From positions 1-54,311 of the forward strand of contig SHMU01000004.1 in NCBI GenBank assembly GCA_008080765.1: a DNA stretch of 54,311 bases, written 5' to 3'. The stretch comes from Promethearchaeota archaeon. GTDB taxonomy: Archaea; Asgardarchaeota; Lokiarchaeia; Sigyniarchaeales; SOKP01. The position numbers were made by a program, and so were the translations under genes. The first letter of the stretch is position 1. Each line of letters starts with the position of its first letter. This document shows positions 23,911 to 44,034 of the stretch, in pieces. The notes under the pieces were generated by a model. The model saw nothing but the letters and a program-made list of their open reading frames with translations, made no database searches and was not told the origin of the DNA.

Positions 23911-23976
23911 ATCACCATAGCTGGTGATCGATAGTGATCTGTCATTAATTATATATCTATTAATGTCATATATAAA
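23911..23976 (-). promoter_or_regulatory. TATA box and palindromic operator upstream of CD36-like paralog 1
   Basis: ATCACC-N6-GGTGAT followed by CGATAGTGAT (23911-23938); TTTATATA on minus strand at 23969-23976 with purine-rich BRE-like flank. Confidence 0.7.
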
Positions 23977-24058
23977 CCTTTCCCTTTATGAATTAGAGAA
24001 TTAGAGAGCCTTTTCTGGTAAAAAAAGTCAATATTACTAAATAGGTTAAAAAGAACTC

Positions 24059-24099
24059 ATACAAAATTAAAAAAATACAAAATTAAAAAAATACAAAAT
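24059..24099. repeat. 16-bp tandem repeat (ATACAAAATTAAAAAA) x2.5
   Basis: Read directly; T-rich on the minus strand. Confidence 0.75.
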
Positions 24100-24189
24100 A
24101 AACAAGAGAAAGAGGAAAAAATAAAAAAAATCCAACTTGACAAAGTCAACCACCCGCAAATAACTTTTTTTAGTTCCATCCTTTACTCC

Positions 24190-24400
24190 CCCAGCATTAT
24201 GCCTGAACTCTTTATGATCCGGATCATCCCGGTACTCGCATAAAAAAATAGGCGTCTGGAGCTGTCGACCAATCCTAATCCTCATGGGTCATACCCGATT
24301 AAAAAACTGAGTCGCATGTTCCGGAATGTGAGTCTTAAAACTCCTTGCTACCGCGCACCTCGTTCGAGAGAGGCGGGAGGAGGCAAGAATAAGACGAAAT
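24190..24400 (+). ncRNA. Candidate IS110 bridge RNA (non-coding end)
   Basis: Two stem/internal-loop/hairpin units (24197-24243 and 24332-24395) plus a middle hairpin (24276-24301); strand assumed. Confidence 0.55.
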
Positions 24401-24430
24401 TACACATAAAGAATACACAAAGGGAGTAAC

Positions 24431-26207
24431 ATGAAAAATAAATCAGACAAGAACACACCAAAAGGGATAAAAACGCCCAACGGTTCTCGTAAGTTTGCGG
24501 GCTTGGTTATCCCAAAAGAGGAACTCGTTGAGCGTGCCGAACTCAGTAAGATTACTTCAGCAAATTTATATAAGTTATTGCAGCATAAAAATGTTCCTAA
24601 TCGGTCGAAACTATCCAAGAAGGGACAGAGAATTAACGCGTTGGTAGGAATGGTTACATACGGTGATATCGAAGAGAAGGGGTTTTCAATAAATATACGG
24701 AGATCACCCCAACTAGAAGTCAGCAACCCGAAGCATGATAGAAAGAGAAAGGAAAAGGAAAAGGAAAAGGAAAAGGCTATAGGGAAGGGAGTTCGGTTTG
24801 CATGCGATGTTGGGGGAATTGATGTGCACAAGTCCACGCTTGTGGTAGCTATTGCGAATACTAAAGGTATAAAAGTCCGTAAAACTGTGCCTAATGATGA
24901 GGCAGGAATTACAGATCTTATCCGATTCTTTACACATTATCGGGTAACCCACTGCGCTTTGTAGTCCACCGCTGAATATTGGCTAAAAGTCTTTTGGCTG
25001 CTTACCGAGGCACGTATTAAGGTTTTAGTGGCAAATCCGCTCCAGACAAAGACTACGCAAGGAAAAAAAGACAGATAAAGAAGATGCCGATAGGATCGCG
25101 CTTGCATTTAGGGATGGGCGCTTAAAGCCTTCTGTGGTCCGTAACGCGGAACAATATTCCATGCGTAAATTGAACCGAGCAGCCCTTAAGAAGACCCAAC
25201 AAGCAACAGCTTCCGCAAATCGGCTCAAAGCAATGGAGGAGATATACGATGCGCCTCAATGGATAAGCACCCTCTGCAAATCAGATCGGGGGCTGTGAAT
25301 CCTATGGAAGGCGCTCCAACTTAATGATGAAAGGGAAATTTTCAACGTTTTAGCTGAGGAATATGCACATGGGAGTCATAAAATTAAATCTGAAAAGGCG
25401 CTTCGGAACAGAGCCCAAGATCTTGCAGCTTTCTTAACTGTTATAGATATTAACGCCAATAATCGGTTAATCTACGCACAGCATATTGAAGATTATGTGA
25501 ACGCGAAACGAATCGCAAAAGAATTTCGGGTAAAGGTTTTAAAGTTTGGACTGGAACATACTGCCGTGAGCAGCCAGTTTAAGACTAATTTAGAATTGTT
25601 ATTGAGCGTTCCTGGCGTGGATATTGAGACCACTCTAACGATTGTAGTTGAAATGGTAAATGTTGATTTCTTTTGGAGTCCTAAAGGACTAGCTAGATGG
25701 GCTGGGCTTCCGCCCACTGTAAAACAATCGGGCTATCGAAAGCGAAGAAATGGGCACATTTATAAGGGAGGAAATAAGTGGCTCCGCACTGCGGTATGGT
25801 TAGCGGCAAAAAGCTGCTATATTCATTTAAAAGATACCGATGAGCCTGTCGGGAGCTTTATTAAGCGCTTATACAAAGAACGGAATAAACACTTTCTTGT
25901 AGCCGTCACCGCGGGTTCTCGGAAGCTCCTAACTTATATTTACTATGTATTAAAAAGCCAGAAGCCCTATGAAAAAGTAGTAGAAATTCAGCAGAACGAG
26001 CAGAGAAAAGTTAAGAATAAACGGAAATTGGCGAAGCTTCATAGATTAATGAATAATTCATCTCTTTCCGAACTTTTACCCCTCGTAGTTAAATCGCTGA
26101 AGCGAGAGCATAATAAACTGAGCGAAACGGAAAAGGAATTAGCATATGAAATGGCATGCAATTTAAATGTGATTCCAAAAGGATTTTCTCCTAATGAGTA
26201 CGGGTAA
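24431..26207 (+). pseudogene. IS110 family transposase/recombinase pseudogene
   Basis: GIDVHK, AL*STAEYW (TAG 24962-24964), VANP, KTDKEDA after a +1 frameshift in the A-run 25063-25069, TGA at 25296-25298, SVPGV, WAGLPPTVKQSG. Confidence 0.9.
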
Positions 26208-26382
26208 ACACTACTCTGTATTCCTTTCAAACTACATGATATAAAACAAAGGTTAATAGAATTAGGGAGTGTGTTAATGTAGTTGATAATAAGATTATGG
26301 TACAGTTAAAGAGAATCTGTAAACACTAAAAAAAATTAAAAAAAGAAATAATTTGATATTAATTAGTTTGTTATTATTGTAT

Positions 26383-29300
26383 CTAGTGGGTTCTAAATCG
26401 TAATTTTCTGCGATAGAAATAGAATACTAGTAGCATAGCTGCAGCGATAGTTGAGAATAGCAGCAATGTTGGATAACCAGGAATTCCTTCCGTTGGTGGA
26501 CGGAAAATTGGGAAGAATGGAGGGACCCATAGAGGCTCCTCTACAGTAATCTTAATGATTACACTTTCCTCATTTCCATGAGCATCCTGAGCAACAATCT
26601 CAAGCCAATATTCTCCAATCACCAAATCAGAATTGTTTGATATGACTCCGGTGTGTGGGTCAATTTGGAAATTCGCAGTGTCATTGATTGAATAAATCAA
26701 TGGTGCCGCAAGATCCTCAGCATTCACATCGTAATTAAATGAATCTCCAAAAACAATAGTTTGATCTTTAGGAATGGGATCCCAAATTGGATCTATTGTG
26801 TCCTCCACAGTAATTTTGATTGCTGCGCTATTTTCGTTTCCAGCAGTATTATTTACAGAGACTTCCAACCAATATTCACCCACCATAAGTGCAGAAAATC
26901 CTTCGGTTATCAATCCTATATTAGGATCAATCTGGAAATTATCAGTATCATTAATCCAATACTGCTCTATTCCTACAGCACTATCCGCATTTACAGTATA
27001 ACTTAATCCTTCTCCAAATTCAATTGTCTGATCTACAGGTTGAGGATTCCATAGTGGAATATCAATTGTTGTAACAGTAATTGTAATAGGAGTACTAATA
27101 TTATTAGGACTGGCTGCTGCATCGGTTGCGATTACAGTGATATCGTAGGTGCCTTCCCCTAACGGGGTTGAATTGGTAAGGACTCCAGTAACAGAATCAA
27201 TATCAAAAGAGCCAGCATCGGGACCGGAAATCAAATAGCTTATCGGTGTGGACAAGTCATTCGCATTCACATCCTGATTGATTTCTGTATCAGGTGCTAC
27301 TACTTGATCTACGGGTGGATTCGTCCATGCTGGTGCAATAGTATCTTGTACCGTAATGGTAATTGCTTGCTCGATGTAATCGGAGGGATTCGTTGCATCT
27401 TCGGCACGTACAGTAATCGAATACACATCTTCTGCCAATGCCCCGTCGTTCGTTATTTCACCGGTTGAATCAATATTAAAGAAGCCCGCATAGGCTCCCG
27501 AAATCGAGTATACAACACCATCAGCATCTTCAGCATTTACAGTATAGCTAAATGGATCTCCAAGTTCCACAGTTTGGTCTTGCGGTGTTGGATTCCAGTA
27601 AGGCTCACCCATAGCAACCGTAATCGTAATAGGAGTACTAATACTATTAGGAGTGGCTGCTGCATCAGTTGCGATCACAGTGATATCGTAGGTTCCTTCC
27701 CCTAACGGGGTTGAATTGGTAAGGACTCCAGTAACAGAATCAATATCAAAAGAGCCCGCATCGGGACCGGAAATGGAATAGCTAATCGGTGTGGAGAAGT
27801 CGTTCGCGTCTACATCCTGATTGATTCCATTGCCCAGCTCGATTGTCTCATCAACGGGTGGTGTTGTCCATGTTGGTGCAATAGTATCTTGCACCGTGAT
27901 GGTTATCGGTGAATTAATAGAATTGGATTCCGCATCGGTCGCGGACACAGTGATATCATACATACCTTCACTTAATGCTACCGAATTGGTAAGAACACCA
28001 GTATTAGGATCAATGGTAAAAGAGCCCGCATCGGGACCGGAAATGGAATAGGTAATCGGTGTGGACAAGTCGTTCGCGTCTACACCCTGATTGATTCCAT
28101 TACCCAGCTCGATTGTCTCATCAACGGGTGCAACAACCCAAGTAGGTGCGGTAGTATCTTGCACCGTAATGGTTATCGGTATACTAATACTATTTGGAGT
28201 GGCTGCCGCATCGGTTGCAATCACATTAATATTGTAGGTGCCTTCTGTTAAAGGACCAGAATTGGTAAGAACACCAGTATTAGGATCAATGGTAAAAGAG
28301 CCCGCATCGGGACCGGAAATGGAATAAGCAACAGGAGTAGAAGGATCAGTCGCATCCACATCTTGATTGACCCCATCTCCAAGTTCGATTGTCTCATCGA
28401 CGGGTGCAACAACCCAAGTAGGTGCAGTAGTATCTTGTACCGTAATGGTAATTGCTTGCTCGATGTAATCGGAGGGATTCGTTGCATCTTCGGCACGTAC
28501 AGTAATCGAATACACATCTTCTGCCAATGCCCCGTCGTTCGTTATTTCACCGGTTGAATCAATATTAAAGAAGCCCGCATAGGCTCCCGAAATCGAGTAT
28601 ACAACACCATCAGCATCTTCAGCATTTACAGTATAGCTAAATGGATCTCCAAGTTCCACAGTTTGGTCTTGCGGTGTTGGATTCCAGTAAGGCTCACCCA
28701 TAGCAACCGTAATCGTAATAGGAGTACTAATACTATTAGGAGTGGCTGCTGCATCAGTTGCGATCACAGTGATATCGTAGGTTCCTTCCCCTAACGGGGT
28801 TGAATTGGTAAGGACTCCAGTAACAGGATCAATATCAAAAGAGCCCGCATCGGGACCGGAAATCGAATAGCTTATCGGTGTGGACAAGTCATTCGCTTCT
28901 ACATCCTGATTCAATCCATTTCCAAGTATAATAGATTGGCTAACTGGAGCAGTCGTCCATGTTGGTGCAGTGGTATCTTGCACCGTGATGGTTATTGGGG
29001 TACTAATGTTATTTGGAGTGGCTGCCGCATCGGTTGCAATCACATTAATATTGTAGGTGCCTTCTGTTAAAGGACCAGAATTGGTCAAGACACCAGTATT
29101 AGGATCAATGGTAAAAGAGCCCGCATCGGGACCAGAAATGGAATAGGTAATTGGTGTGGACAAGTCGTTCGCGTCTAGCTCCTGATTGATTCCATTACCC
29201 AGCTCGATCATTTCATCAACGGGTGGTGTTGTCCATGTTGGTGCAATAGTATCTTGCACCGTGATGGTTATCGGTGTATTAATAGAATTGGATTCCGCAT

Positions 29301-32300
29301 CGGTCGCGGACACAGTAATATCATACGTACCTTCACTTAATGCTACTGAATTGGTAAGAACACCAGTATTAGGATCAATAGTAAAAGAGCCCGCATCGGG
29401 ACCAGAAATGGAATAAGTAACAGGAGTAGAAGGATCAGTCGCATCCACATCTTGATTGACTCCATCTTTAAATTCGATTGTCTCATCGACGGGTGCAACA
29501 ACCCAAGTAGGTGCACCAGTATCTTGTACCGTGATGGTTATTGGTGTACTAATGCTGTTTGGAGAGGCTGCCGCATCGGTTGCGGAAACTGTGATATCAT
29601 ACGTACCTACACTCAGCGCTACTGAATTGGTAAGGACTCCAGTATAAGGATCAATGGTAAAAGAGCCCGCATTGGCTCCCGAAATAGAATACGTAATCGG
29701 TGTGGATAAATCAGTTGCTTCCACATGTTGATTAACCCCAGTGCCAAGCTCAATCGTCTCATCTACAGGAGCAGTCGTCCATGTTGGTGCAATAGTATCT
29801 TGCACCGTAATGGTAATTGCTTGCTCAACATAATCGGAAGGATTCGTTGCATCTTCGGCACGTACAGTAATCGAATACATATCTTCTGCCAATGCCCCAG
29901 CGTTCGTTATTTCACCGGTTGAATCAATATCAAAGAAGCCCGCATCGGCACCAGAAATCGAGTATACGACACCATCAGCATCTTCTGCATTTACAGTATA
30001 GCTAAATGGATCTCCAAATTCTACAGTTTGGTCTTGTGGTGTTGGATTCCAGTATGGTTCATCAACAGCAACCGTAATCGTAATAGGAGTACTAATACTA
30101 TTAGGAGTGGCTGCTGCATCAGTTGCGATCACAGTGATATCGTAGGTTCCTTCCCCTAACTGGGTTGAATTGGTAAGGACTCCAGTAACAGAATCAATGG
30201 TAAAAGAGCCTGCATCGGGACCGGAAATGGAATAGGTAATCGGTGTGGACAAGTCGTTCGCGTCTACATCCTGATTCACTCCATTTCCAAGTACAATAGA
30301 TTGGCTAACTGGAGCAGTCGTCCATGTTGGTGCAGTAGTATCTTGCACCGTGATGGTTATCGGGGTACTAATGCTATTTGGAGTAGCTGCCGCATCAGTC
30401 GCGGAAACTATGATATTATAAGTACCCTCTGCTAATGCCACAGAATTAGTAAGAACACCAGTATTAAGATCAATATCAAAGATGCCAGCATTGGCACCAG
30501 AAATTGAATAGGTAATTGGAGTGGACAAGTCGTTCGCATCTACGTCCTGATTGATTCCATCACCAAGCTCGATTGTTTCATCAACAGGTGCAACAACCCA
30601 AGTAGGTGCGGTAGAATCTTGCACCGTGATGGTTATCGGGGTACTAATGCTATTTGGAGTAGCTGCCGCATCGGTTGCAATCACATTAATATTGTAGGTG
30701 CCTTCTGTTAAAGGACCAGAATTGGTCAAGACACCCGTTCCAATATTAATAGTGAAAAAACTGGCATCGACACCGGAAATCGAATAGGTAATTGGAGTGG
30801 ACAAGTCGTTCGCGTCTACATCCTGATTGATTCCATTACCCAGCTCGATTGTCTCATCAACAGGTGCAACAACCCAAGTAGGTGCAATAGTATCTTGCAC
30901 CGTGATGGTTATCGGTGAATTAATAGAATTGGATTCCGCATCGGTCGCGGACACAGTGATATCATACGTACCTTCACTTAATGCTACCGAATTGGTAAGA
31001 ACACCTGTATTAGGATCAATAGTAAAAGAGCCCGCATCGGCACCTGAAATTGAGTAAGTGACAGGCGTAGAAGGATCAATCGCGTCTACATCCTGATTGA
31101 TTCCATCACCAAGCTCAATTACTTCATCGACAGGAGCAATAACCCAAGTAGGCGCTCCAGTATCTTGCACCGTGATGGTTATCGGGGTACTAATGCTGTT
31201 TGAAGTTATTGCTGAATCTGTTGCAATTACATTGATATCATATGTAGCTACACCTAATGCTACCGAATTGGTAAGGACTCCAGTTACAGGATCAATATCA
31301 AAAGAGCTTGCATCGGCACCGGAAATGGAATAGGCAATCGGTGTGGACAAGTCGTTCGCGTCTACATCCTGATTGATTCCATTACCCAGCTCGATCATAT
31401 CATCAACGGGTGGTGTTGTCCATGTTGGTGCAATAGTATCTTGCACCGTGATGGTTATCGGTGTATTAATAGAATTGGATTCCGCATCGGTCGCGGACAC
31501 AGTGATATCATACGTACCTTCACTTAATGCTACCGAATTGGTAAGAACACCTGTATTAGGATCAATAGTAAAAGACCCCGCATCGGGACCGGAAATGGAA
31601 TAGGTAATTGGTGTGGACAAGTCGTTCGCGTCTACATCTTGATTGATCCCATCTCCAAATTCGATTGTCTCATCTACAGGTGCAACAACCCAAGTAGGTG
31701 CACCAGTATCTTGAACTGTGATAATAATCGGCGTATTGAGAGCATTAGATTCCACATCGGTTGCGGAAGCTGTGATATTATACGTACCTACACTCAGCGC
31801 TACTGAATTGGTAAGGACTCCAGTTACAGGATCAATATCAAAAGAGCTTGCATCGGCTCCCGAAATGGAATACGTAATCGGTATGGATAAATCAGTTGCT
31901 TCCACATCTTGATTAACCCCAGTGCCAAGCTCGATCGTCTCATCTACAGGAGCAGTCATCCATATTGGTGCAATAGTATCCTGCACCGTAATGGTAATCG
32001 GAGTGTCAAGTGAATTAGAATATGAATCAGTTGCAGAAACTGTAATATCATATGTACCTACACTTAATGGCACCGAGTTTATGAGCAAGCCTGTGTTAGG
32101 ATCAATATCAAAGGAGCTTGCATCGGCTCCCGAAATAGAATACGTAATCGGAGTAGAAGGATCAGTCGCTTCCAAATCTTGACTGACCCCAGTGCCAAGC
32201 TCGATCGTCTCATCTACAGGAGCAGTCGTCCATACAGGGGGTTCTGTATCACTAGGTGCTGTTTGCGCAGTGATTGCGATACTAAAACCTTCCTTGCTAA

Positions 32301-34524
32301 AAACATATTGGTTTTTGCATTCAGTATCACTCATTGAACCATCATCAAAGTAGGTTCTTAGAGAGTTCATCAATCCAGTTTTGGTATTCGTAGAACCATC
32401 ATTTCCATAAAGGGACATTTCAGTAAATCCACCAACATCTTGCCAATACCACTGGAGGCTACTATAAGTATCACCCGAAAAGATTTGGGAGAATTCTTGA
32501 ACAGGTATATATGTCCAAGCACCTGCTGTGTTGGTTTTTACGTATCTCCAATCACTTAAGGGATTTCCCGTTACAATCGGTGAGCTTTCATCAAAGAGGG
32601 ATGGATTCGGTCCCGCATCATTTGCAAGATAATCTTCACCAGTATTACCACCATTTGGAGTACAAGTTCGAGTTGTTGCATATACAGGATCACATTGAAT
32701 GTATCCATATCCACTTGGAGCTTGTCCAAGCCATACTGATGGATTATTACTTCGAATATCATTATGAAGCACAGCACCATCATAGAACATGTAATACACA
32801 TTCATATAGACGTTTAAGTTTGGATCTCCAGCACCTCGAGGGGAATAATCTAAATCAAGAAGATATTCCACCTCTCTCATTTCATTCGCAAAAAAGCTGG
32901 TTGTATATCTGTCAAATCTCAAACCTTCTTCATATTCCATTGAATTAACTTCATTATCAACGAAAGTAAACTGTACTTGTCGTAATGAAAATTGATCAAT
33001 AATTACTCTAATGGGTCCATCAACAGCGGCTTGGTGTCCATTCGCAAAAGTGATCAAGCCTCTTACAAATGGGGCATGTTCACTATTAAGACCATAATTC
33101 CCATCATGGTCCATCCCATCATCCCAAGATGCAACATTGCCAATCCCTATTAAACTAAGGAAGAAATATTCATCCCACCATCCACCATATCCAGAAGATC
33201 GATGATTCTGTCCTCCTGGTAATGGTTGGTTCCATGGACGATGTCCATTAGTATAATCACTATCTTGTCCCGGAAAGATAGGATCTCCTACTCCAGCGGC
33301 AAGATTTTGCAGATCAAAATCCATTGTTGTACCATAACCAATATCTGTAATGAGCTCATCATAAAAAGTACCACTCCATGTGCCCATTCTCGTGCCTGTG
33401 CAGGTGTCAGCTTGAGAATCAACTGCACCAGCACCAAATGTAGAGCCTGCTCTTTGAATGTCAAGTTGAAGTTGTTGCCATTCTTTATTCCATTCAGTAA
33501 ACATATTTTGACCTTCAACTACAATTGAAGCAAGAAAAGCTTGATCAGCCGTAGAATCATAAGAATATTGGTAATTTTCACCAGTAACCGTTTGGGTACC
33601 AGAATTCCATGCTACTTGATCATCAGAAGGACCATTAGGCATAAAAAATTTTTCAGCGGGTGGTGGAGTACCCATATCATCATTATAATACAAGTACATA
33701 TACCCAGTACCGCCACCTGACACAGGATCAGTAATGGCTAATTCATATCTATCGGGATATGAAGCGGCATTCCACCAATTAGAGGCATCTACTTGATCCC
33801 CATTGTAGGCATAAAAACTTACCTCATCGTCATAATCAATTCTATCAGGTAATTGTTCCCAAGCACCACCCGGTTGTTCAAGATTATAAGGATATACCCC
33901 CGGATCCGGTTGAACGGGAGGTTCTGCTTGGGGAGCATCTCCATCTGACCATGGTTCATCAGTATAATATTCTGCAGCTCGTGCTGCCCAAAATTCCATC
34001 TCACAATCATACTGAGATAATTCTGTCGCACTTGCAGCATAACTATCTACATGATCACCTACATATCGGTGATCGGAGATAAAGTGACCCCAATTAGTCT
34101 GTTCTGTATATTGAGTACCGCCACTAAAGCTAATATCTCCTTCAACATGCTTTCCAGTTTCATATGTATAGGATCTGAAATACCCCATCTCATCTAACTG
34201 GAAGGGAACTAATACCCAACTGGAGCCATCATAATATGCAATTCTGATATTATCAACATGATGATTTTTTAATGCGGTCCATAATGCACCGCCAGCAGTC
34301 TCATTATCAAGAATCACGGGATAGCCCGTTCGAGTTAAAGTTCCCGCTACATTCGGATTATCGTATTGATTAAATGCGTTCGGAAATGTTAAATCGGTTT
34401 TTTTTGTTGAGTTTAACGCTCCACCCAAACTAAAAAAAATGGGCATTGTTAAACAGCAGATAATTCCAAGAATAATCTCATAATGCTTTAATTTTTTTGT
34501 TTTTCTTAGTTTTGTAATGTTCAT
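26383..34524 (-). CDS. Giant cell-surface protein with 21 cadherin/Ig-like repeats and a C-terminal sorting signal
   Basis: N-terminal basic+hydrophobic signal, ~760-aa unique head, 21 repeats of ~91-93 aa (DTxAPTW...FxIDxxTG...YxITVxATD), C-terminal IPGY-TM-RRK. Confidence 0.92.
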   Translation of the reverse strand: MNITKLRKTKKLKHYEIILGIICCLTMPIFFSLGGALNSTKKTDLTFPNAFNQYDNPNVAGTLTRTGYPVILDNETAGGALWTALKNHHVDNIRIAYYDGSSWVLVPFQLDEMGYFRSYTYETGKHVEGDISFSGGTQYTEQTNWGHFISDHRYVGDHVDSYAASATELSQYDCEMEFWAARAAEYYTDEPWSDGDAPQAEPPVQPDPGVYPYNLEQPGGAWEQLPDRIDYDDEVSFYAYNGDQVDASNWWNAASYPDRYELAITDPVSGGGTGYMYLYYNDDMGTPPPAEKFFMPNGPSDDQVAWNSGTQTVTGENYQYSYDSTADQAFLASIVVEGQNMFTEWNKEWQQLQLDIQRAGSTFGAGAVDSQADTCTGTRMGTWSGTFYDELITDIGYGTTMDFDLQNLAAGVGDPIFPGQDSDYTNGHRPWNQPLPGGQNHRSSGYGGWWDEYFFLSLIGIGNVASWDDGMDHDGNYGLNSEHAPFVRGLITFANGHQAAVDGPIRVIIDQFSLRQVQFTFVDNEVNSMEYEEGLRFDRYTTSFFANEMREVEYLLDLDYSPRGAGDPNLNVYMNVYYMFYDGAVLHNDIRSNNPSVWLGQAPSGYGYIQCDPVYATTRTCTPNGGNTGEDYLANDAGPNPSLFDESSPIVTGNPLSDWRYVKTNTAGAWTYIPVQEFSQIFSGDTYSSLQWYWQDVGGFTEMSLYGNDGSTNTKTGLMNSLRTYFDDGSMSDTECKNQYVFSKEGFSIAITAQTAPSDTEPPVWTTAPVDETIELGTGVSQDLEATDPSTPITYSISGADASSFDIDPNTGLLINSVPLSVGTYDITVSATDSYSNSLDTPITITVQDTIAPIWMTAPVDETIELGTGVNQDVEATDLSIPITYSISGADASSFDIDPVTGVLTNSVALSVGTYNITASATDVESNALNTPIIITVQDTGAPTWVVAPVDETIEFGDGINQDVDANDLSTPITYSISGPDAGSFTIDPNTGVLTNSVALSEGTYDITVSATDAESNSINTPITITVQDTIAPTWTTPPVDDMIELGNGINQDVDANDLSTPIAYSISGADASSFDIDPVTGVLTNSVALGVATYDINVIATDSAITSNSISTPITITVQDTGAPTWVIAPVDEVIELGDGINQDVDAIDPSTPVTYSISGADAGSFTIDPNTGVLTNSVALSEGTYDITVSATDAESNSINSPITITVQDTIAPTWVVAPVDETIELGNGINQDVDANDLSTPITYSISGVDASFFTINIGTGVLTNSGPLTEGTYNINVIATDAAATPNSISTPITITVQDSTAPTWVVAPVDETIELGDGINQDVDANDLSTPITYSISGANAGIFDIDLNTGVLTNSVALAEGTYNIIVSATDAAATPNSISTPITITVQDTTAPTWTTAPVSQSIVLGNGVNQDVDANDLSTPITYSISGPDAGSFTIDSVTGVLTNSTQLGEGTYDITVIATDAAATPNSISTPITITVAVDEPYWNPTPQDQTVEFGDPFSYTVNAEDADGVVYSISGADAGFFDIDSTGEITNAGALAEDMYSITVRAEDATNPSDYVEQAITITVQDTIAPTWTTAPVDETIELGTGVNQHVEATDLSTPITYSISGANAGSFTIDPYTGVLTNSVALSVGTYDITVSATDAAASPNSISTPITITVQDTGAPTWVVAPVDETIEFKDGVNQDVDATDPSTPVTYSISGPDAGSFTIDPNTGVLTNSVALSEGTYDITVSATDAESNSINTPITITVQDTIAPTWTTPPVDEMIELGNGINQELDANDLSTPITYSISGPDAGSFTIDPNTGVLTNSGPLTEGTYNINVIATDAAATPNNISTPITITVQDTTAPTWTTAPVSQSIILGNGLNQDVEANDLSTPISYSISGPDAGSFDIDPVTGVLTNSTPLGEGTYDITVIATDAAATPNSISTPITITVAMGEPYWNPTPQDQTVELGDPFSYTVNAEDADGVVYSISGAYAGFFNIDSTGEITNDGALAEDVYSITVRAEDATNPSDYIEQAITITVQDTTAPTWVVAPVDETIELGDGVNQDVDATDPSTPVAYSISGPDAGSFTIDPNTGVLTNSGPLTEGTYNINVIATDAAATPNSISIPITITVQDTTAPTWVVAPVDETIELGNGINQGVDANDLSTPITYSISGPDAGSFTIDPNTGVLTNSVALSEGMYDITVSATDAESNSINSPITITVQDTIAPTWTTPPVDETIELGNGINQDVDANDFSTPISYSISGPDAGSFDIDSVTGVLTNSTPLGEGTYDITVIATDAAATPNSISTPITITVAMGEPYWNPTPQDQTVELGDPFSYTVNAEDADGVVYSISGAYAGFFNIDSTGEITNDGALAEDVYSITVRAEDATNPSDYIEQAITITVQDTIAPAWTNPPVDQVVAPDTEINQDVNANDLSTPISYLISGPDAGSFDIDSVTGVLTNSTPLGEGTYDITVIATDAAASPNNISTPITITVTTIDIPLWNPQPVDQTIEFGEGLSYTVNADSAVGIEQYWINDTDNFQIDPNIGLITEGFSALMVGEYWLEVSVNNTAGNENSAAIKITVEDTIDPIWDPIPKDQTIVFGDSFNYDVNAEDLAAPLIYSINDTANFQIDPHTGVISNNSDLVIGEYWLEIVAQDAHGNEESVIIKITVEEPLWVPPFFPIFRPPTEGIPGYPTLLLFSTIAAAMLLVFYFYRRKLRFRTH
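26540..32250 (-). repeat. Coding tandem array of ~273-279 bp units with higher-order duplications
   Basis: 27341-27737 and 28430-28826 are essentially identical (offset 1089 bp); third, slightly diverged copy near 29795-30160. Confidence 0.9.
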
Positions 34525-34618
34525 AAAAGGTTTTCACATTTTTTTCTGTATTCATTAGATTTCTTCTAATTTTACACATTTTTCTAATTGTTTTCAATAA
34601 TTTTTTTATAAAAGTTTA

Positions 34619-34671
34619 GATCACCATAGGCGGTGATCGGTAGTGATTAATTCAACTTCAAAGTATATAAA
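34619..34671 (-). promoter_or_regulatory. TATA box and palindromic operator upstream of the giant surface protein gene
   Basis: GATCACC-N6-GGTGATC followed by GGTAGTGAT; 25/28 identical to 23911-23938; TTTATATA on minus strand at 34664-34671. Confidence 0.72.
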
Positions 34672-35257
34672 GGTTTCGATATAGGTGATCAGTAATCATT
34701 AAGGTATTAAGATCGGAGATTAGAAGGTCCCTTCTGATGAGAATGATGTTTTTTTAAATCTTTAACTAATATTTATTCATCAAGTATTATCTTTCGAATT
34801 TCTGTAGGAAAGAGTACTAAGAAACGCAATTTGGGTAAGAGCGAATGTTTAATGGATGTTTAAAAGGATAATAATGTTAAAAAGAAAGAAAATCAGAATG
34901 GGTTTTATTATGTTATTGCAAACTAGTTACTACGAAAGAAGGTATTGATTTATGGATTTCTGAACCTAATCTAAACCCATTAAAGTAAAAATGAGATATA
35001 TCTGAGAAGATGACGAAAAATTTCGCACTAAAAAAAACAAATCTATAATTATTTTTAACAAGGTTTTATAAAATAAGAAGAAGGGAAAAATAGATCATAA
35101 AATTTTTTTGGATTATACATTTATTTAAAATATCAATATAGAATAATTTTTGGAATATCCCAACAGATTTTTTAATGTGGAATCTAACTAACAATATAAG
35201 AACATATTAAAGAGTATTTATAATTATTCTAATCAATAATTTTAATGGTGTTAAATT

Positions 35258-35962
35258 ATTTCTGAACAAGATACAGGCGTAAAATACGAATATGAGATAT
35301 TACAATGCGTCAAAAACAATCCGGGCGGGCTAACGGTTACTGACATTGCGGAGATCAAGGGGTTTAGTCGGAACACAGTATCCAAATATATTAGTATCTT
35401 AAAGGTAAAAAAAAAGATCAGAAAAAAGAAAATTGGCGCCTATTCTCTCTATTTTTCCACGGAGGAGAATTATTTGCCCAATACTCTTGTGTTATCTTAT
35501 TATAAAGTTTTATTGAAAGGGTTAAAAGAGAATTTTCCTGAGAGGGGTGATTTGTTCAAGGAATTAATCAAAAAAAATGTATCTGATATCAAATTCACCT
35601 TTTCGCCCAAAGTATATCAACAATTGAAGTATTTTAAGAATCATCCTATTTCCCAATATACAAAAATCCATTTAGAAATTTTTAAGGAGTTTTATCCTAC
35701 TTATGATATTTTCCAACCGGATGTGGAGATATCGATTCTAAAAATTGATCCTAAGGGGCAAAAAGCTATCTATCGGTTCAGAAATTCTGTTTTTCTAGAA
35801 AATAATGAGGATTATATTTATCATCTTTATTTCATGTGTGGTTTAACTGAAGGGATCTTAGAGCGGGAAATACACCGAGAAGTTAAATGTGAGGTTGAAA
35901 ATTATCATGTAGGGGGAGGAAAGGAAGATTCCTATTTTGATATTTCAATTACCATTAAATAA
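35258..35962 (+). CDS. Winged-HTH transcriptional regulator with V4R-like C-terminal domain (paralog 1)
   Basis: Frame is open upstream of the track start (35474) back to ATT 35258: ILQCVKNNPGGLTVTDIAEIKGFSRNTVSKYISIL is an HTH; aligns with the next gene. Confidence 0.82.
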   Translation: MSEQDTGVKYEYEILQCVKNNPGGLTVTDIAEIKGFSRNTVSKYISILKVKKKIRKKKIGAYSLYFSTEENYLPNTLVLSYYKVLLKGLKENFPERGDLFKELIKKNVSDIKFTFSPKVYQQLKYFKNHPISQYTKIHLEIFKEFYPTYDIFQPDVEISILKIDPKGQKAIYRFRNSVFLENNEDYIYHLYFMCGLTEGILEREIHREVKCEVENYHVGGGKEDSYFDISITIK

Positions 35963-36089
35963 ATTTTGTTCTCAATTAATCCTTTAAAGCTAATATTTAT
36001 AAATATTTCAACAATTCCTAAGACTTATATAGTAAGCATTACAATACACTTATATTACATCCGTAAAACCTAAAAAAGGGTGTGTACAG

Positions 36090-36815
36090 ATAACTGAGCA
36101 ACAATCAATAATAAGCTATGCAAAAGAGATATTGGAATGTATCAAGAACAATCCTGGCGGAATTACGATTACAGATATTTCTCAGATGCGAGGATTTTCG
36201 CGCAATACGGTATCCAAATATATTAACATCTTGAAGGAAAAGAAGAAGATCCGAAAAAAGAAAGTAGGTGCCTATTCTCTCTACTTTTCTATGGAAGAGA
36301 ATTTTTTGCCTAATAGTCTTGTGCTCTCCTATTATCAGGTCATATTAAAGGGTTTAAAAGAATATTTTCCCGATAATGAAAGAGGAGAATTTTTTAAACA
36401 GCTAATTCAGAAGAATGTTGATGAAATTAGGATTAATATAAGCCCGGAAATGAAAAAAAAACTAAATGAATTAGGAGAGAAGCCAACAAGGGAATTAATT
36501 TCGATAAATCTCAATTTATTTAAGGAATTATATTTAATGTATGACCTTTTTCAACCGGATGTTGATATATCCTTATTAGAAATAGATGCAGATCAGAATA
36601 AAGTTATATATCGGTTTAAGAATTCTCGTTTTTTTGAAGATAATGAGGATTACATCTATCACTTATATTTTATGTGCGGAGTCTCTGAGGGGATATTAGA
36701 AAGAGCATTAAAAAGAAAAATAACTTGTCGGCTTGAGAACAATCATATAGCTGGAGAGAAGGAGGATTCATATTTTGATCTTTCAATTGAAATTGGACAG
36801 AGAACTAGGTCATAA
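36090..36815 (+). CDS. Winged-HTH transcriptional regulator with V4R-like C-terminal domain (paralog 2)
   Basis: PGGITITDISQMRGFSRNTVSKYINIL; YHLYFMCGVSEGILE; start at ATA 36090 (inferred) or TTG 36132. Confidence 0.85.
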   Translation: MTEQQSIISYAKEILECIKNNPGGITITDISQMRGFSRNTVSKYINILKEKKKIRKKKVGAYSLYFSMEENFLPNSLVLSYYQVILKGLKEYFPDNERGEFFKQLIQKNVDEIRINISPEMKKKLNELGEKPTRELISINLNLFKELYLMYDLFQPDVDISLLEIDADQNKVIYRFKNSRFFEDNEDYIYHLYFMCGVSEGILERALKRKITCRLENNHIAGEKEDSYFDLSIEIGQRTRS

Positions 36816-36926
36816 AAAAACCAAAATGCATATACATTTCTTAACATGAATCTCTGATTCCGAAAACATCTATTATTGTAAAAAAGATAAACCAAGAAAA
36901 AGGGGAGATGTGTGTTAATAGTTTTA

Positions 36927-38477
36927 CTATTTAGCATCTACACTAAGCTTTTTCTTTGCAGGCTTTTTAAGTAAGTTTTGGGTTTTTTTTCCAATGAATA
37001 AATATCCATCCTCATCTATCTCAGCACTCTCTCCCGTATGTAGCCACCCATGTTCATCAATAATCTTATTGGTAGCTTCCCGATTTTTCCAATAGCCTTT
37101 CATTACTGAGGGTCCCTTTATTAAAAGTTCGTCCTTTTTTTTATTAAGTTTTTGTTTTATTTTTTCATAGGGATTATCTAAAATTTCTAATGGGGGTCCT
37201 CTTGATGTAATTTTATGATAAAAGGGGATCTTTTTCTTAAAATCCGGGCGCTTCTTAGAATTATATTTTGTTCTCAACAGATGGGTAATTGCGGTAAGTT
37301 CTGGAAGGCCATAAGAGGTGAGCAAGGAGATTCCAATTGAATTAAAGAAATACAGATATTTTTCTGATATGTTAGCGGGACTACTAATCATAAGTTTCAG
37401 CTTGCCTCCAAAAGATTTTCTGATGATTTTTCCAATAATTTTTTGAAGAATTTTATGTTTAAGGATTGCACCAATTTTATTTCTCTTAGTTTTTGCTTTG
37501 TTTTTATAATAGATCTCTGCATTTTGTATGAAGTCCTTTACTAATTCTTGTTGTCTTTTAGGATAATCTTCAAGCGTTTTAAAGACAATGAAATGGATAA
37601 CTTGATAAATCAATGGATATGCAATCATAATCGTAGGTTTAAATTTTTCAAATGATTTTTCAATGAGATCTGGGTCTAACTTATTAACAATATCCAAGGA
37701 AGAGCCAAGCATTAAAGAGCTCAACATCAGGAGTCTACCTAGGGGATCTGAAAAAGGGATGAGGGAAAGAATATGTTGTTTCCACGGTTTCATTTTTTTT
37801 TGTGCTTTCATTAATGTAGATGTAAATGCAGTTGCGTTGGAAAGTATATTCTTATGGGTGAGCATTATTCCATTGGGAGCTCCTTTCATCTCTGAAGAAT
37901 AAAGAATAGTTGAGAGATCTTTTTCTTCTGTAGCTCGAATTGAAATATTGAACTTAATAGAGGAATGGTATTGAGCTTCTCCTAAAGACAAGAGCTCATC
38001 GAATGTCATAATATTCGTTTTATTATTAGATTGTTTCTTTGGATAAAAAATGATAATCAATTTGAGAAGAGAAGTATCATTTATAATTGAGGAGAGCTTC
38101 TTTAATGTGGTTAAATTATCAATGAAAAGTGCTTTACACTCAGAATCTTCTAAAATAGAATTCAAGTTTTTTCTCTTAAGATCGGGGTCGATGGGAATCG
38201 TTATCCCTCCCAAAGCTTGGATTGCTAAGTCTGCGATAATCCATTCGGGATTCGCTTTTGAACAAATCCCAATATGATCACCGCGAGTAAAGCCCATCTG
38301 TGTTAATGCATAAAAAACTGCTGTCATAGAATCGGCTAATTCATTAAATGATAAAGTTTGAATTTTATCATGCGATACGAGCCATCGAATTGCAATTTCA
38401 TTATAATATTTATTCTTAATATTTATGATCATTTCAGGTATATTTTTATACCGAATGAGAGATTGTGTTTTCTTCAT
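36927..38477 (-). CDS. Long-chain acyl-CoA synthetase-like AMP-binding protein with degenerate catalytic motifs
   Basis: ANL fold motifs (EWIIADLA, GPSVMKGYW, GWLHTG) but YSSEMKGAPNG, YGLPE, TGE; C-terminal subdomain missing. Confidence 0.85.
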   Translation of the reverse strand: MKKTQSLIRYKNIPEMIINIKNKYYNEIAIRWLVSHDKIQTLSFNELADSMTAVFYALTQMGFTRGDHIGICSKANPEWIIADLAIQALGGITIPIDPDLKRKNLNSILEDSECKALFIDNLTTLKKLSSIINDTSLLKLIIIFYPKKQSNNKTNIMTFDELLSLGEAQYHSSIKFNISIRATEEKDLSTILYSSEMKGAPNGIMLTHKNILSNATAFTSTLMKAQKKMKPWKQHILSLIPFSDPLGRLLMLSSLMLGSSLDIVNKLDPDLIEKSFEKFKPTIMIAYPLIYQVIHFIVFKTLEDYPKRQQELVKDFIQNAEIYYKNKAKTKRNKIGAILKHKILQKIIGKIIRKSFGGKLKLMISSPANISEKYLYFFNSIGISLLTSYGLPELTAITHLLRTKYNSKKRPDFKKKIPFYHKITSRGPPLEILDNPYEKIKQKLNKKKDELLIKGPSVMKGYWKNREATNKIIDEHGWLHTGESAEIDEDGYLFIGKKTQNLLKKPAKKKLSVDAK

Positions 38478-38635
38478 TTTTTAATTATTCCTTTTGGTTT
38501 AGTTATTCGCTACATTATTATATTATTATTTTGTATTATTCTACGGGTATTTTGAATATATTGGATTTAAAAGGTCTAGATAATGTATTCTATCCTTTAA
38601 AAAATATATAAAAAATAAAAAATGTGATTATTGAG

Positions 38636-41239
38636 CTATTTCTTAGTATTTGATTTCTTCGATTTCATTTTTTTTATCGGTTTTTTAGATTTGAGATTCT
38701 TTTTCTTCAAAGTTTTACTTTCTGGAAGTGTATAACCCAGTTTTTCTTTTACTGAACCTAAGTTTCCTTTCAGATTTTGCTTGCTTTTAGGTTGAAGTCT
38801 CTTTTTTATGATAGATTTCTTTACTTCGTGATTCATCGTTCCCGCACCTCCTGCGATGCCAAGTATTACTCCTAAGGTTATTCCTCCAGGAAGTATGTAG
38901 GCTTGTGCTGTTTGGGCAGGATATACCTCATTAGTAAATCGTTCCGCTAAGTGGAGAGGAACGATTCCACTCCGTTCATACCATACTATCGGCATTGTAG
39001 TTGTGTTTATATCTGAGGTAAAGTATTCTTCCGAAGTTAGATTAAAATTGACTTGGATTCGCTCTCTTGCATGCATAGTAACCCCGGAAATAGGTTCAAT
39101 ATCTATGAACGTATCATGAGCCATTCTATCAGGGTGTGTACCATTTATTGAAGCGACTACTTGGGGATCGGCATCAAGAAAATGTGGTTTGCTTACCAAA
39201 ACAGGTACCCCTCTGAACTTTTCGACAGCTTGAACATTGATTAATCCTTGTGTATTCATATAATAATTTTTATTTGGAGAGAATGTTTTAGGAGCAAACG
39301 TAAATCTATTGAGTTGTACCCCATACACAGAAGTTGGACCAAGATATACCAAATCAATTACACGCATTAAATCGGGATTAAATATCTTTGGGGGAACTAG
39401 TTCAGTAGCTTTACCGGGATTATACATTCCTAAAGATCCCATTAAAGGTTCAGAATGCTGCCATAAATTAATCGTCGACTTTCCATCATAAGCCACGACT
39501 TGTCTGGCAAGTTGCTCATTAGTATGCCCAGTCGTCATGGTTATAGTTTTGATATACGCTTCTTCTTCGGCTATGGTTTGATTTTCACAATTATCAAATA
39601 AATGTACACGTCCAATGGAGGTATCCTTTTCATAATACTCCATAAAACTGCATACTGCCTCATCAGTAGCTTCAAAAAGCCATTCTTCTACTGTGCGATT
39701 GGTAATTACTCCACTATTCCATTCATTCGACTGATATGCAACAGCATTTGGAAGCCATGTTTCAATACTTGTATCAATCCATTCCAAAATCTTAGCTAAC
39801 TGGTCGGAGGTAATCCCAAAATAAGCCGTCAAATTTCCTCTGGCATATTCTCCTTCAGGAGTATTGTCAAGAGCATCAAACCACAGTTGATTTTCTTCAT
39901 AGTCCATTCCGGTAAGGGATAAAGGATCGCTCTTGTTCCAGAGTGCTACGCATTGATCATAAGTGATTCCAGTCTCGCCTACTATATTATATTGATCTAA
40001 ATCCATTTTGGTGCCAATATGGAGCGGAATTATCAACCATACCCATTCCCAGAATTCTTCCTCGTAATCTTCAATCTGTACATATTCTGTGTTTGTAATA
40101 TTCAGATCTGCTTCCGGAGGGATTGCAGTTCCTGCAAGCGTACCATCAATATCTACACCTAACCCGTTTAAGCTTCCCGATTCATCGACCATCTCAGCGA
40201 TTTGTTTCGAAATTAAGGCGTTCTGAACCCTCTGGATATCCTCATCTAATAAGGTTTGTACCATCAGATCCTCAATACCAGCTGCTAGAAGTACCTCAAT
40301 TCCACCACCTGTATAATCAACTTGATTTGCCAAGTAATTGTAATCCCCATTAAATTGGGGAGCAGAATCATTTGCCCATTCAGCATAAAATACTTCTTCC
40401 CAATCGGGCATTCCTTGCTCTAAGAAAAACTGTAAATCAGAAATCTCAATGCAATCAAAAAAAATATCAGCCACAGTTTTTGAAGATATTTCAGACGCTC
40501 CGAGAGTTTCACATTCACTTAGAATGTCTCTCTGTGATTGCTCAATCCATTCTTCATCATTCAATTGCGTATCCATACTTTCTGTAAATATAGATTCAAA
40601 AGTTTCTTTTACTTGGCTGAGCACATATGGAAGGTTCATCTCACAATAATCCCTTTGGGAGCCTCCTGCCATCGCCACGCCTCCTAAAAATGCAGGATTC
40701 ACATTGGTGATATAGACTTCGGAGATATTTTCTCCTCCGACTTGGACATATTTTTCATATTCTTTATATGTCACGGTTGAGCTAATCAAATTGTAAGAGA
40801 TGTCGTATTTGTATTTTAAATATTTGAACCTAAATGGTCCTATCTCCTCATATACTGGGGGTTCACTTCCAGAAAGAAACGCATCTGGATTCGTTAAATT
40901 CCATAAGTAATAGGTTTTATATTCTTCGGGAGCCCCGGGATAATCATTAGTAACGAAAGTAAAATAATTTGAATCTAAGGGTGTGGGAACGAGCGTTTGC
41001 TCCCCAATTCCTTTGGCTATTTCTTCATCTATGAATGAATTTAAAAAGATGGTACCGGGTATTAAGGCAATCCCCAACACAATTAAAGTGATGGTTCCTA
41101 CTTGGCTTATCTTTTTAGGTTTTTTCATTGCTTTTGCGAATGGATTTTGGGGCTTTTTCTTTTTTGATAATTTCAATGGAGTCTTAGATTTAATGGTTTT
41201 CGAAGTGTTAAGTTTTTTTTTCTTTAATAATTCGGTCAT
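38636..41239 (-). CDS. CD36/SR-B/LIMP-2 family scavenger-receptor-like membrane protein (paralog 2)
   Basis: WNLTNPDAF..PPVYEEIGPFRF; RTVEEWLF; VSKPHFLDAD..HPD..HDTFIDIEPISG...RIQVN; two terminal TM helices; colinear with paralog 1. Confidence 0.87.
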   Translation of the reverse strand: MTELLKKKKLNTSKTIKSKTPLKLSKKKKPQNPFAKAMKKPKKISQVGTITLIVLGIALIPGTIFLNSFIDEEIAKGIGEQTLVPTPLDSNYFTFVTNDYPGAPEEYKTYYLWNLTNPDAFLSGSEPPVYEEIGPFRFKYLKYKYDISYNLISSTVTYKEYEKYVQVGGENISEVYITNVNPAFLGGVAMAGGSQRDYCEMNLPYVLSQVKETFESIFTESMDTQLNDEEWIEQSQRDILSECETLGASEISSKTVADIFFDCIEISDLQFFLEQGMPDWEEVFYAEWANDSAPQFNGDYNYLANQVDYTGGGIEVLLAAGIEDLMVQTLLDEDIQRVQNALISKQIAEMVDESGSLNGLGVDIDGTLAGTAIPPEADLNITNTEYVQIEDYEEEFWEWVWLIIPLHIGTKMDLDQYNIVGETGITYDQCVALWNKSDPLSLTGMDYEENQLWFDALDNTPEGEYARGNLTAYFGITSDQLAKILEWIDTSIETWLPNAVAYQSNEWNSGVITNRTVEEWLFEATDEAVCSFMEYYEKDTSIGRVHLFDNCENQTIAEEEAYIKTITMTTGHTNEQLARQVVAYDGKSTINLWQHSEPLMGSLGMYNPGKATELVPPKIFNPDLMRVIDLVYLGPTSVYGVQLNRFTFAPKTFSPNKNYYMNTQGLINVQAVEKFRGVPVLVSKPHFLDADPQVVASINGTHPDRMAHDTFIDIEPISGVTMHARERIQVNFNLTSEEYFTSDINTTTMPIVWYERSGIVPLHLAERFTNEVYPAQTAQAYILPGGITLGVILGIAGGAGTMNHEVKKSIIKKRLQPKSKQNLKGNLGSVKEKLGYTLPESKTLKKKNLKSKKPIKKMKSKKSNTKK

Positions 41240-41244
41240 ATAAT

Positions 41245-41318
41245 ATCACATTTTAGAGATGATCAGTGGTGATCATCAAAATACTATTAATGCAATATTG
41301 ATCAACATTATATTTAAG
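41245..41318 (-). promoter_or_regulatory. Operator-like palindrome and probable TATA upstream of CD36-like paralog 2
   Basis: GATGATCA-GTGG-TGATCATC at 41258-41277 with the same TGATC-N5-TGATC spacing; TTAAATATA on minus strand at ~41309-41317. Confidence 0.55.
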
Positions 41319-43293: not shown

Positions 43294-44034
43294 TTATTCT
43301 TTAATACCAAATTTATTCTTTATTGAATCGGGCAATATCCATCCAAGATAAAACATAAACCCACTGAAAATAGAGACAATTCTTATAATTGGGAGTAATA
43401 TAATGTTCAAATTCAAGAGAGCATCCGCCATAGCACCAATAAAATAGGTAATAAATCCTATTAAGAGAAACTTGCCTTTTAATCTATTTCCCACATTCTC
43501 TGACTTAATTGATTTAGCTGCAAAAAGAATTCCTGTTATCATTATGATAAGTATAATTGCAATTAGATATAAGCCAAAAAAACTGGAATATTTCACATCG
43601 ACAGCGCTTGTCGTTTCTCCAATCAGTGTTGGGTCAATAAACAGAAACAAAATCAGAATTATTTCATAGATAGCAACAAAAACCCCATAAATAGATAAAA
43701 TACCTGTTTTGCGTTTTTCAAACATTAAATCCGTCATTGCAATCATCCATATGAAAGCAAGTGGGGGAACCCCAATATTTCCTATAAGGAAATAGAGAGG
43801 ATCGGGTATTGGCATTCCAGAGATTATTGTTGTGAGAAATGATATACAAGAGGGATACCATCCTTGATTTAAGCCAATCCAGCTGATGCCAATATAGAGA
43901 AAAATCTTATCATCATATTTGAAATATTTAGAGGCGATATAAGATCCTATTGATACAGAAAGAATGACGATTAATAAGCTAAAGATCCCATTTACTATTT
44001 CTTGTGTAGTCAAATAAGTAGTCAAAATACTCAC
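43294..44034 (-). CDS. Hypothetical 7-TM membrane protein
   Basis: Seven hydrophobic segments in 246 aa, no soluble domain. Confidence 0.75.
   Translation of the reverse strand: MSILTTYLTTQEIVNGIFSLLIVILSVSIGSYIASKYFKYDDKIFLYIGISWIGLNQGWYPSCISFLTTIISGMPIPDPLYFLIGNIGVPPLAFIWMIAMTDLMFEKRKTGILSIYGVFVAIYEIILILFLFIDPTLIGETTSAVDVKYSSFFGLYLIAIILIIMITGILFAAKSIKSENVGNRLKGKFLLIGFITYFIGAMADALLNLNIILLPIIRIVSIFSGFMFYLGWILPDSIKNKFGIKE

Follow-up and report, generated by a model that had tools for sequence, protein, structure and literature searches.

Why should genes for unrelated proteins carry nearly the same palindrome just upstream of their start codons? The question is raised by a 54,311-nt stretch of DNA (the window, that is, the whole stretch analyzed here), which is contig C4 of a Promethearchaeota source assembly (G000; 3.92 Mb, 274 contigs, 33% GC, 73% completeness). 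The sequencing runs that contain it (n = 2) are labelled marine sediment metagenome. A first-pass annotation, made from the letters alone, had proposed that two genes for CD36-like membrane proteins and one for a giant surface protein share an operator, and had named two neighboring helix-turn-helix (HTH) proteins as candidate regulators. We conclude that these sites are probably the operators of a small regulon for lipid uptake and activation, held under a ligand-released repressor. The element itself, a 16-bp box, is very probably a real cis-element. The genes concerned lie in the window as follows.

21294..23837, minus strand: CD36a, 847-aa CD36-family membrane protein (Pfam CD36, PF01130, 6.2e-66)
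26383..34524, minus strand: giant cadherin-repeat surface protein, 2713 aa (Pfam Cadherin, 5.8e-147)
35255..35962, plus strand: candidate regulator 1, winged HTH plus Bet3/V4R-like domain
36132..36815, plus strand: candidate regulator 2, listed from a TTG; conserved coding extends upstream to ~36087
36927..38477, minus strand: acyl-CoA-synthetase-like (AMP-binding) gene, directly downstream of CD36b
38636..41239, minus strand: CD36b, 867-aa CD36-family membrane protein (Pfam CD36, 1.1e-64)

The first-pass annotation had reported a pair of 28-mers at 23911-23938 and 34620-34647, a third site at 41258-41277, and an extra GGTGATC at 34684-34690. All of these are present: the 28-mers are identical at 25 of 28 positions, the third site reads GATGATCAGTGGTGATCATC, and each of these three sites stands between a minus-strand TATA-like octamer and a start codon. 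A 25/28 match between two 200-nt upstream regions has a chance probability of ~7e-7. Identity in the 40 nt on each side of the 28-mers is 12/40 and 11/40, which is background (27% expected), and the three differences between them, at positions 11, 12, and 21, all fall within spacers. The similarity is therefore that of a sharply bounded, constrained element rather than of a duplicated block. The motif is not frequent at random positions, as the 25-position consensus of the 28-mer occurs exactly twice in the assembly and the next best match has 6 mismatches; two copies in an assembly of this completeness are also not the multi-copy pattern of a mobile-element remnant.

The proposal of a shared operator was upheld in substance, and its unit had to be redrawn. 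The functional core is shorter than the 28-mer: a 16-bp near-palindrome, TGATCA-N4-TGATCA, in which each hexamer is self-complementary and the two hexamers lie one helical turn apart. The 28-mer combines this core with an overlapping palindrome, ATCACC-N6-GGTGAT, which contributes an extra GGTGAT-type element, and the additional GGTGATC belongs to a further box at 34686-34701. GGTGATC occurs 11 times in the window (4.26 expected), a count reached by none of 100 shuffles. The exact ATCACC-N6-GGTGAT occurs three times in the genome, at the two window sites and once inside an open reading frame on contig C46; the same arms at other spacings gave no match (spacers of 0 to 5, 7, 9, 10, and 12) or a single one (8 and 11). 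The TGATC-N5-TGATC spacing by which the third site had been recognized failed as a genome-wide rule (12 matches versus 2 to 23 at other spacings). Loosely defined, with up to two mismatches, the palindrome is found three times in the window versus 1.53 expected, a nonsignificant excess that 18 of 100 shuffles reached.

The box is present with zero to two mismatches at all four G000 promoters considered here, namely those of CD36a, CD36b, the giant gene, and a synthetase operon on another contig (C41). The sites in the window are listed below; the bits and ranks are those of a position weight matrix (PWM) trained on other genomes, and the TATA-like octamers are sequence matches only.

23911..23928: CD36a left palindrome ATCACC-N6-GGTGAT, the left part of the 28-mer, with its GGTGAT common to the core
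23925..23940: CD36a core box TGATCG-ATAG-TGATCT, 103 to 88 nt upstream of the start codon; 2 mismatches, 13.3 bits, window rank 3
23969..23976, minus strand: CD36a TATA-like octamer TTTATATA, 28 nt upstream of the box
34620..34637: giant-gene promoter palindrome ATCACC-N6-GGTGAT, overlapping the core box
34634..34649: giant-gene core box TGATCG-GTAG-TGATTA; 2 mismatches, 14.8 bits, window rank 2
34664..34671, minus strand: giant-gene TATA-like octamer TTTATATA, 14 nt upstream of the core box
34686..34701: second, weaker giant-gene box TGATCAGTAATCATTA, upstream of the TATA-like octamer; 12.7 bits, window rank 4
41260..41275: perfect CD36b box TGATCA-GTGG-TGATCA, 36 to 21 nt upstream of the start codon; 18.1 bits, best in the window
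41311..41318, minus strand: CD36b TATA-like octamer CTTAAATA, one mismatch to TTTAAATA, 35 nt upstream of the box

The perfect CD36b box is one of two exact matches in the genome. In most promoters the box starts 11 to 35 nt after the nearest exact TTTAWATA, and in two it starts 49 and 55 nt after it. A separate palindrome, GATCACC-N8-GGTGATC, lies at 34053-34074 within the 5′ part of the giant gene.

The main support for the box comes from its placement and conservation and not from totals of matches. CD36 orthologues in four related genomes have a TGATCA-N4-TGATCA-like element shortly downstream of a TTTAAATA or TTTATATA box. We searched more widely for CD36-like genes, using one genome per species, and obtained 17 loci from Promethearchaeota/Promethearchaeia metagenome-assembled genomes (MAGs), 16 of them with upstream DNA; the four promoters just mentioned are counted among these. 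(Related genomes are designated G002, G004, and so on, extracted loci L018, L020, and so on, and contigs of G000 by C.) In 11 of the 16, the 400 nt ahead of the CD36-like gene contain a box with up to two mismatches; matches number 17 in the upstream windows versus 6 in the remaining ~150 kb of the loci. The CD36-like proteins of those loci are 33 to 49% identical to the query, and the surrounding promoter DNA cannot be aligned. When a symmetric PWM was built from 10 foreign-genome sites only, the four window boxes (starting at 41260, 34634, 23925, and 34686) came out as the top 4 of 54,296 window positions. Across the genome, window boxes rank 5th, 18th, and 42nd among the 49 matches of at least 13 bits, and the synthetase site on C41 ranks 2nd.

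The box also travels with the gene for the candidate regulator. Regulator homologues occur in 11 of the 17 CD36-like loci, among them 10 of the 11 that bear a box; the eleventh box-bearing locus, L020, ends just after its CD36 gene. All five CD36 loci without a homologue are also without the box, and one locus with a homologue (L030) has no upstream DNA. The distance from homologue to CD36 gene is 0.2 to 3.3 kb in four genomes (G004, G005, G006, and G016). In G007, where no CD36 gene was found, a 22.0-bit box outside the training set lies in the divergent region adjoining a regulator orthologue. Because orthologues adjoin the box in other genomes, the two HTH proteins singled out by the first-pass annotation are indeed the best regulator candidates, and we think it likely that the neighboring HTH plus Bet3/V4R-like protein reads the box.

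The regulator genes of the window, which are paralogues, occupy the interval between the giant gene and the synthetase-like gene. The regulator family was found, among the relatives searched, in 17 of 24 genomes of one taxonomic family (f1) versus 0 of 16 from three sister families, and neither module gene was found in the single-contig relatives G032, G033, and G038. A set of 5.8 billion proteins contained 47 regulator-matching clusters, all named hypothetical or generic HTH. CD36-family genes are patchy across the phylum, with 13 of 201 genomes above the cut-off.

A genome-wide scan had been suggested by the first-pass annotation, with enrichment upstream of lipid-metabolism genes as the favorable outcome. 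For a few sites the outcome was favorable: in G000 (contig C41) and in G002, the box heads operons for long-chain acyl-CoA synthetases. No broad enrichment was seen. The box at C41:16813 shares an exact 17-mer with the CD36a site (chance ~2e-4 by our estimate) and lies 55 nt upstream of the ATG of a 661-aa long-chain acyl-CoA synthetase (AMP-binding, 3.6e-68), whose best NCBIfam similarity, below the model cut-off, is to FadD11. A second synthetase copy follows in the operon, fused to a membrane domain. The third G000 copy of this subfamily is the window gene behind CD36b, which probably forms one operon with it and whose product is 53% identical to the C41 synthetase; all three copies thus lie in box-headed operons. 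The orthologous synthetase of G002 is 62% identical to that of C41 and is followed by a nitronate monooxygenase-family (NMO) gene. An 18.4-bit box outside the training set lies ~35 nt upstream of its ATG, and a regulator orthologue adjoins it; no CD36 gene was found in this genome. Close relatives of the C41 synthetase were not found at E 1e-60 in G004, G005, G006, or G016, so conservation of the synthetase promoter was tested in G002 only.

Two further features of these synthetases were recorded. The window protein is shorter than its C41 paralogue (516 versus 661 aa), and LYSSEMKGAPNG replaces the IYTSGTTGEPKG of the paralogues; it is possibly an inactive or repurposed enzyme. The C41 fusion protein (912 aa; C41:18961-21699, or L014 5962-8700) combines a multi-pass membrane domain with a long-chain acyl-CoA synthetase, and the family of this membrane domain has 12 matches in G000, one of them in the window at 43294-44034.

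What kind of protein is the regulator? Its N-terminus matches Pfam HTH_24 (23.9 bits versus a cut-off of 21.9), and the AlphaFold2 model (mean pLDDT, 82) has a helix-helix-helix-strand-strand order there. The C-terminal domain of ~170 aa is without a Pfam match; as modeled, it resembles the two-layer alpha/beta fold of the V4R/Bet3 structural superfamily. A Foldseek search with the predicted model returned 14 matches at E up to 0.001, the best of them palmitate-bound TRAPPC3/Bet3 (6aq3; E 3e-5; TM-score of 0.62 on the target), followed by H-NOX and the V4R sensor domains of MopR/PoxR. By sequence, the only match in the PDB was to an IclR HTH (E 0.016), NCBIfam gave sub-threshold HTH matches only, and no TetR family match was found in Pfam or NCBIfam. 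Across 13 regulator sequences, C199 is the sole invariant cysteine.

The regulator was also predicted to form a homodimer, with a model score of 0.74 versus 0.00 for the best of three controls, although this pass may reflect likeness, as dimers of the same fold have already been solved. Of proteins with solved structures, 20 of 30 one-chain pairs and 1 of 23 single chains attain the mark used for this score. Agreement between runs extends to at least 86% of contacts, the partner pLDDT is at least 78, and the modeled interface comprises residues 56 to 102, the first two helices of the sensor domain.

Based on these results, we propose the following mechanism. The box would lie at the predicted core promoter, or a short way past it, in four cases: CD36a, the operon of CD36b and the synthetase-like gene, the giant cadherin gene, and the C41 synthetase operon. 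Archaeal transcripts start ~22 to 24 nt after the TATA box; if that holds here, the gap of 11 to 35 nt puts the box on or just after the transcript start. We infer that a homodimer of the neighboring regulator (paralogues at 35255-35962 and ~36087-36815) binds the box, where it would hinder the recruitment of RNA polymerase or its escape from the promoter. A dimeric repressor is favored because the position of the box matches those from which the archaeal regulators MsvR and FadR block polymerase recruitment, and repression seems fairly likely. A hydrophobic ligand would then release the dimer, so that the uptake (CD36-like) and activation (synthetase) genes may switch on together. The fold of the sensor and the content of the regulon suggest a long-chain fatty acid or an acyl-CoA as the most plausible ligand; that the ligand is a lipid at all is more tentative, and we give it slightly less than even weight.

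Several results weigh against this reading. Genome-wide, the PWM is weakly enriched, with 49 matches of at least 13 bits versus 42 under an order-4 Markov model and 6 versus 1.8 at 18 bits or more; the reversed matrix gave 15 at the 13-bit threshold. As the total barely exceeds the Markov expectation, the regulon is small and many of the other matches are noise; most of them probably arose by chance. The genes beside the other intergenic matches have unrelated functions. An extension of the regulon through eight such matches was rejected for want of a coherent theme among the neighbors, which include NosD/beta-helix and FG-GAP surface proteins, a tRNA synthetase, radical SAM, ferredoxin, SDR, and DHQS. 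The top genomic match, C72:12043, was also dropped as a regulon member; no counterpart of it is conserved in front of the orthologues in G005 and G006, and the membrane protein downstream of it belongs to a 12-copy family in G000. In G004, G005, G006, and G016, 43 sites have at most one mismatch, and among the 16 loci examined only two CD36 promoters touch known regulon genes. The related genomes are, moreover, nonindependent samples, with near-identical operators at L023/L024/L028 and at L026/L032.

The regulator itself adds to this side of the balance. Pfam V4R (PF02830) was undetected in it by sequence at E up to 0.1, and both window regulator genes are without a canonical in-frame start for the conserved N-terminus, which makes their expression uncertain. 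The open frame of regulator 1 has its first canonical start codon no earlier than residue 74. The missing starts could reflect near-cognate initiation or decay. The same feature recurs in the family: the conserved N-terminus lacks an in-frame ATG, GTG, or TTG in 11 of 13 regulator genes compared, from the window and from loci L018 to L032, and five orthologues have ACG at the position of the ATG of L029. ATT or ATA codons stand near the beginnings of the two G000 genes (35255-35300 and 36036-36132), an ATG at 35245 misses the frame by a single base, and gene callers truncate the window regulators to 209 and 149 aa.

Promoter architecture bears on the alternative that survives best, in which the same box and regulator serve activation or position-dependent dual control, with TBP/TFB recruited from sites upstream of the TATA-like box. 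Archaea do have dual regulators of this position-dependent kind, and three boxes lie where such a regulator could activate: the second giant-gene box (34686-34701), upstream of its TATA-like octamer, and the boxes of L026 and L032, 43 nt upstream of their TTTAAATA. The gap between TATA-like octamer and box is also variable, and the octamers are matches in AT-rich DNA; both points weigh against the favored reading. However, the best-conserved box of each promoter is downstream of the TATA-like octamer, and CD36b and the C41 synthetase have a downstream box only. We therefore consider activation or dual control unlikely.

A second alternative accepts the operator and assigns it to another transcription factor, the neighboring HTH genes being linked to it for other reasons. 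No box of at least 9 bits was found at the regulator-homologue loci of G021 and G009, and that of G019 has only a 9.9-bit site. The two window regulator genes likewise have no box of at least 8 bits upstream (best, 7.2 bits). These absences weigh against the proposed pair as well as for another factor. On the other side stand the joint occurrence of box and regulator gene in 10 of the 11 box-bearing CD36 loci, their joint absence from the five regulator-less loci, their renewed pairing in G002 and G007 where CD36 was not found, and a modeled dimer that fits a dyad site. Another factor is thus a still less likely explanation than dual control, and the neighboring regulator remains the favored reader of the box.

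The palindromes might instead act as hairpins of the 5′-leader RNA that control stability or translation, and not as protein-binding DNA. The four G000 sites do fold at −9.3 to −12 kcal/mol (z-scores of −1.6 to −3.6), and several boxes are probably downstream of the transcript start. The arms that pair are not the same from site to site, however, and by our reading an uncompensated mismatch disturbs the 6-bp stem in 6 of the 10 training sites; boxes upstream of the TATA-like octamer would, in addition, stay untranscribed. We regard the hairpin as very improbable.

The giant cadherin gene and its surroundings stand out in several ways. GC content in 2-kb bins filled by this gene is 0.40 to 0.45 versus 0.29 to 0.38 in bins outside 24 to 34 kb, and a search of five congeneric genomes (G001, G002, G004, G005, and G006) at 1e-10 gave no match to the N-terminal 700 aa of its product. 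The gene looks like acquired cargo under a promoter with a native operator. IS110 transposase fragments (24431-26207), which flank the gene, lie between it and the CD36a promoter.

The least probable explanation of all, that the sites are chance similarities, a recently duplicated promoter fragment, or a remnant of this IS110 element, can draw on the position of the fragments, the acquired look of the giant gene, and an AT-rich genome, and it fails on the chance probability, the background flanks, and the two-copy count given above, as well as on the recurrence of the core box in promoters of other MAGs, where no IS element was flagged in these analyses.

Some further observations were recorded. 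A short tandem repeat of AAAAATACAAAATT-type units occupies 24050-24100, between the CD36a promoter and the IS110 fragments. TGATCATCCATGATGA recurs at least nine times with similar flanks, on G000 contigs C11, C18, C22, C36, C92, C157, C160, C223, C228, and others, and probably belongs to a repeated element or a gene family that has nothing to do with the operator. CD36a and CD36b are 58% identical and score 223.2 and 219.1 bits with PF01130 (gathering cut-off, 26.5); the profile covers the window CD36-like proteins in two pieces, split by an insertion of ~300 aa. A weakly similar repeat (E 0.002) occurs in membrane proteins of 501 to 557 aa that adjoin regulator orthologues in G007 and G019 (regions L084 4693-8033 and L085 5897-9219).

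If the proposed repressor and operator are as we describe, what would they mean? To our knowledge, almost no transcription factor/operator pairs have been described for Asgard archaea, and we found no relevant paper on CD36 in Asgard archaea, in archaea generally, or in Lokiarchaeota. The system bears on whether the CD36-like proteins of Asgard archaea belong to lipid uptake and on what their Bet3/V4R-like domain binds. It is possible, if rather doubtful, that the genes constitute a Loki-type Asgard lipid-scavenging module in which CD36-type proteins and synthetases are switched on via a fatty-acyl-binding, Bet3/TRAPPC3-like sensor. Such a module would provide the first assigned function for an Asgard Bet3/V4R-like domain and would show directly that these archaea sense bacterial-type fatty acids and import them. 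Coupling of fatty-acid uptake with activation in a Lokiarchaeon would also bear on the debate over archaeal and bacterial lipids and the origins of eukaryotes. If the ligand is not a lipid, the sites would still define a well-delimited new regulon of surface and membrane genes.

Several known systems share parts of the proposed design. In MopR and PoxR, phenol sensors of bacteria, the sensor domain is fused to a sigma-54 activator module. Their sensors (PDB 5kbe and 5frz) are of V4R type, bind a small hydrophobic effector, and control transcription, which parallels the proposed regulator; they are activators, however, and their structural match is weaker than that of Bet3 (E ~1e-3 versus 3e-5). 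For Bet3/TRAPPC3 and Asgard TRAPPC3/V4R proteins, the accounts in PMC10933270 and PMC2253512 describe cavities that bind hydrophobic ligands such as palmitate, and dimerization of Bet3/TRAPPC3 through two N-terminal helices. This dimer interface resembles the modeled one of the regulator. Unlike the regulator, these proteins act alone, as trafficking subunits or as ligand binders, and have no DNA-binding domain; the four-cysteine zinc site described for Thor-TRAPPC3 and PoxR is not conserved in the regulator.

The logic of the proposed regulon resembles that of FadR from Sulfolobus acidocaldarius. According to PMC6449355, FadR is a repressor of the TetR family that fatty acyl-CoA releases from its DNA; its 16-bp dyad motif occurs at four genomic sites, one of them just downstream of a transcript start, and it controls beta-oxidation and lipase genes in one cluster. 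The likeness to that description lies in the few sites, the lipid genes, and release by acyl-CoA, which is only proposed here; the proteins differ, with a TetR fold in one and a winged HTH plus Bet3/V4R-like domain in the other.

MsvR of methanogens is the closest known system. PMC3729527 describes a winged HTH plus V4R homodimer that acts as a repressor on a partial inverted repeat, TTCGTA-N4-TACGAA, at or near BRE/TATA or the transcript start. It also describes redox sensing via conserved V4R cysteines, boxes of the form TTCGN7-9CGAA upstream of its own gene, and a distribution unique to methanoarchaea. On that account the two systems share the two-domain plan, the dimer (modeled here), and a 6-N4-6 operator near the core promoter. 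The regulator of the window differs in its hexamer, in lacking a Pfam V4R match, and in the absence of conserved redox cysteines, C199 alone being invariant. It differs further in the lipid uptake and activation genes to which it is linked, in its promethearchaeotal lineage, and in having no box upstream of its own genes. It is therefore not an MsvR, and we file it as an HTH plus V4R-superfamily regulator with a new operator and a new regulon.

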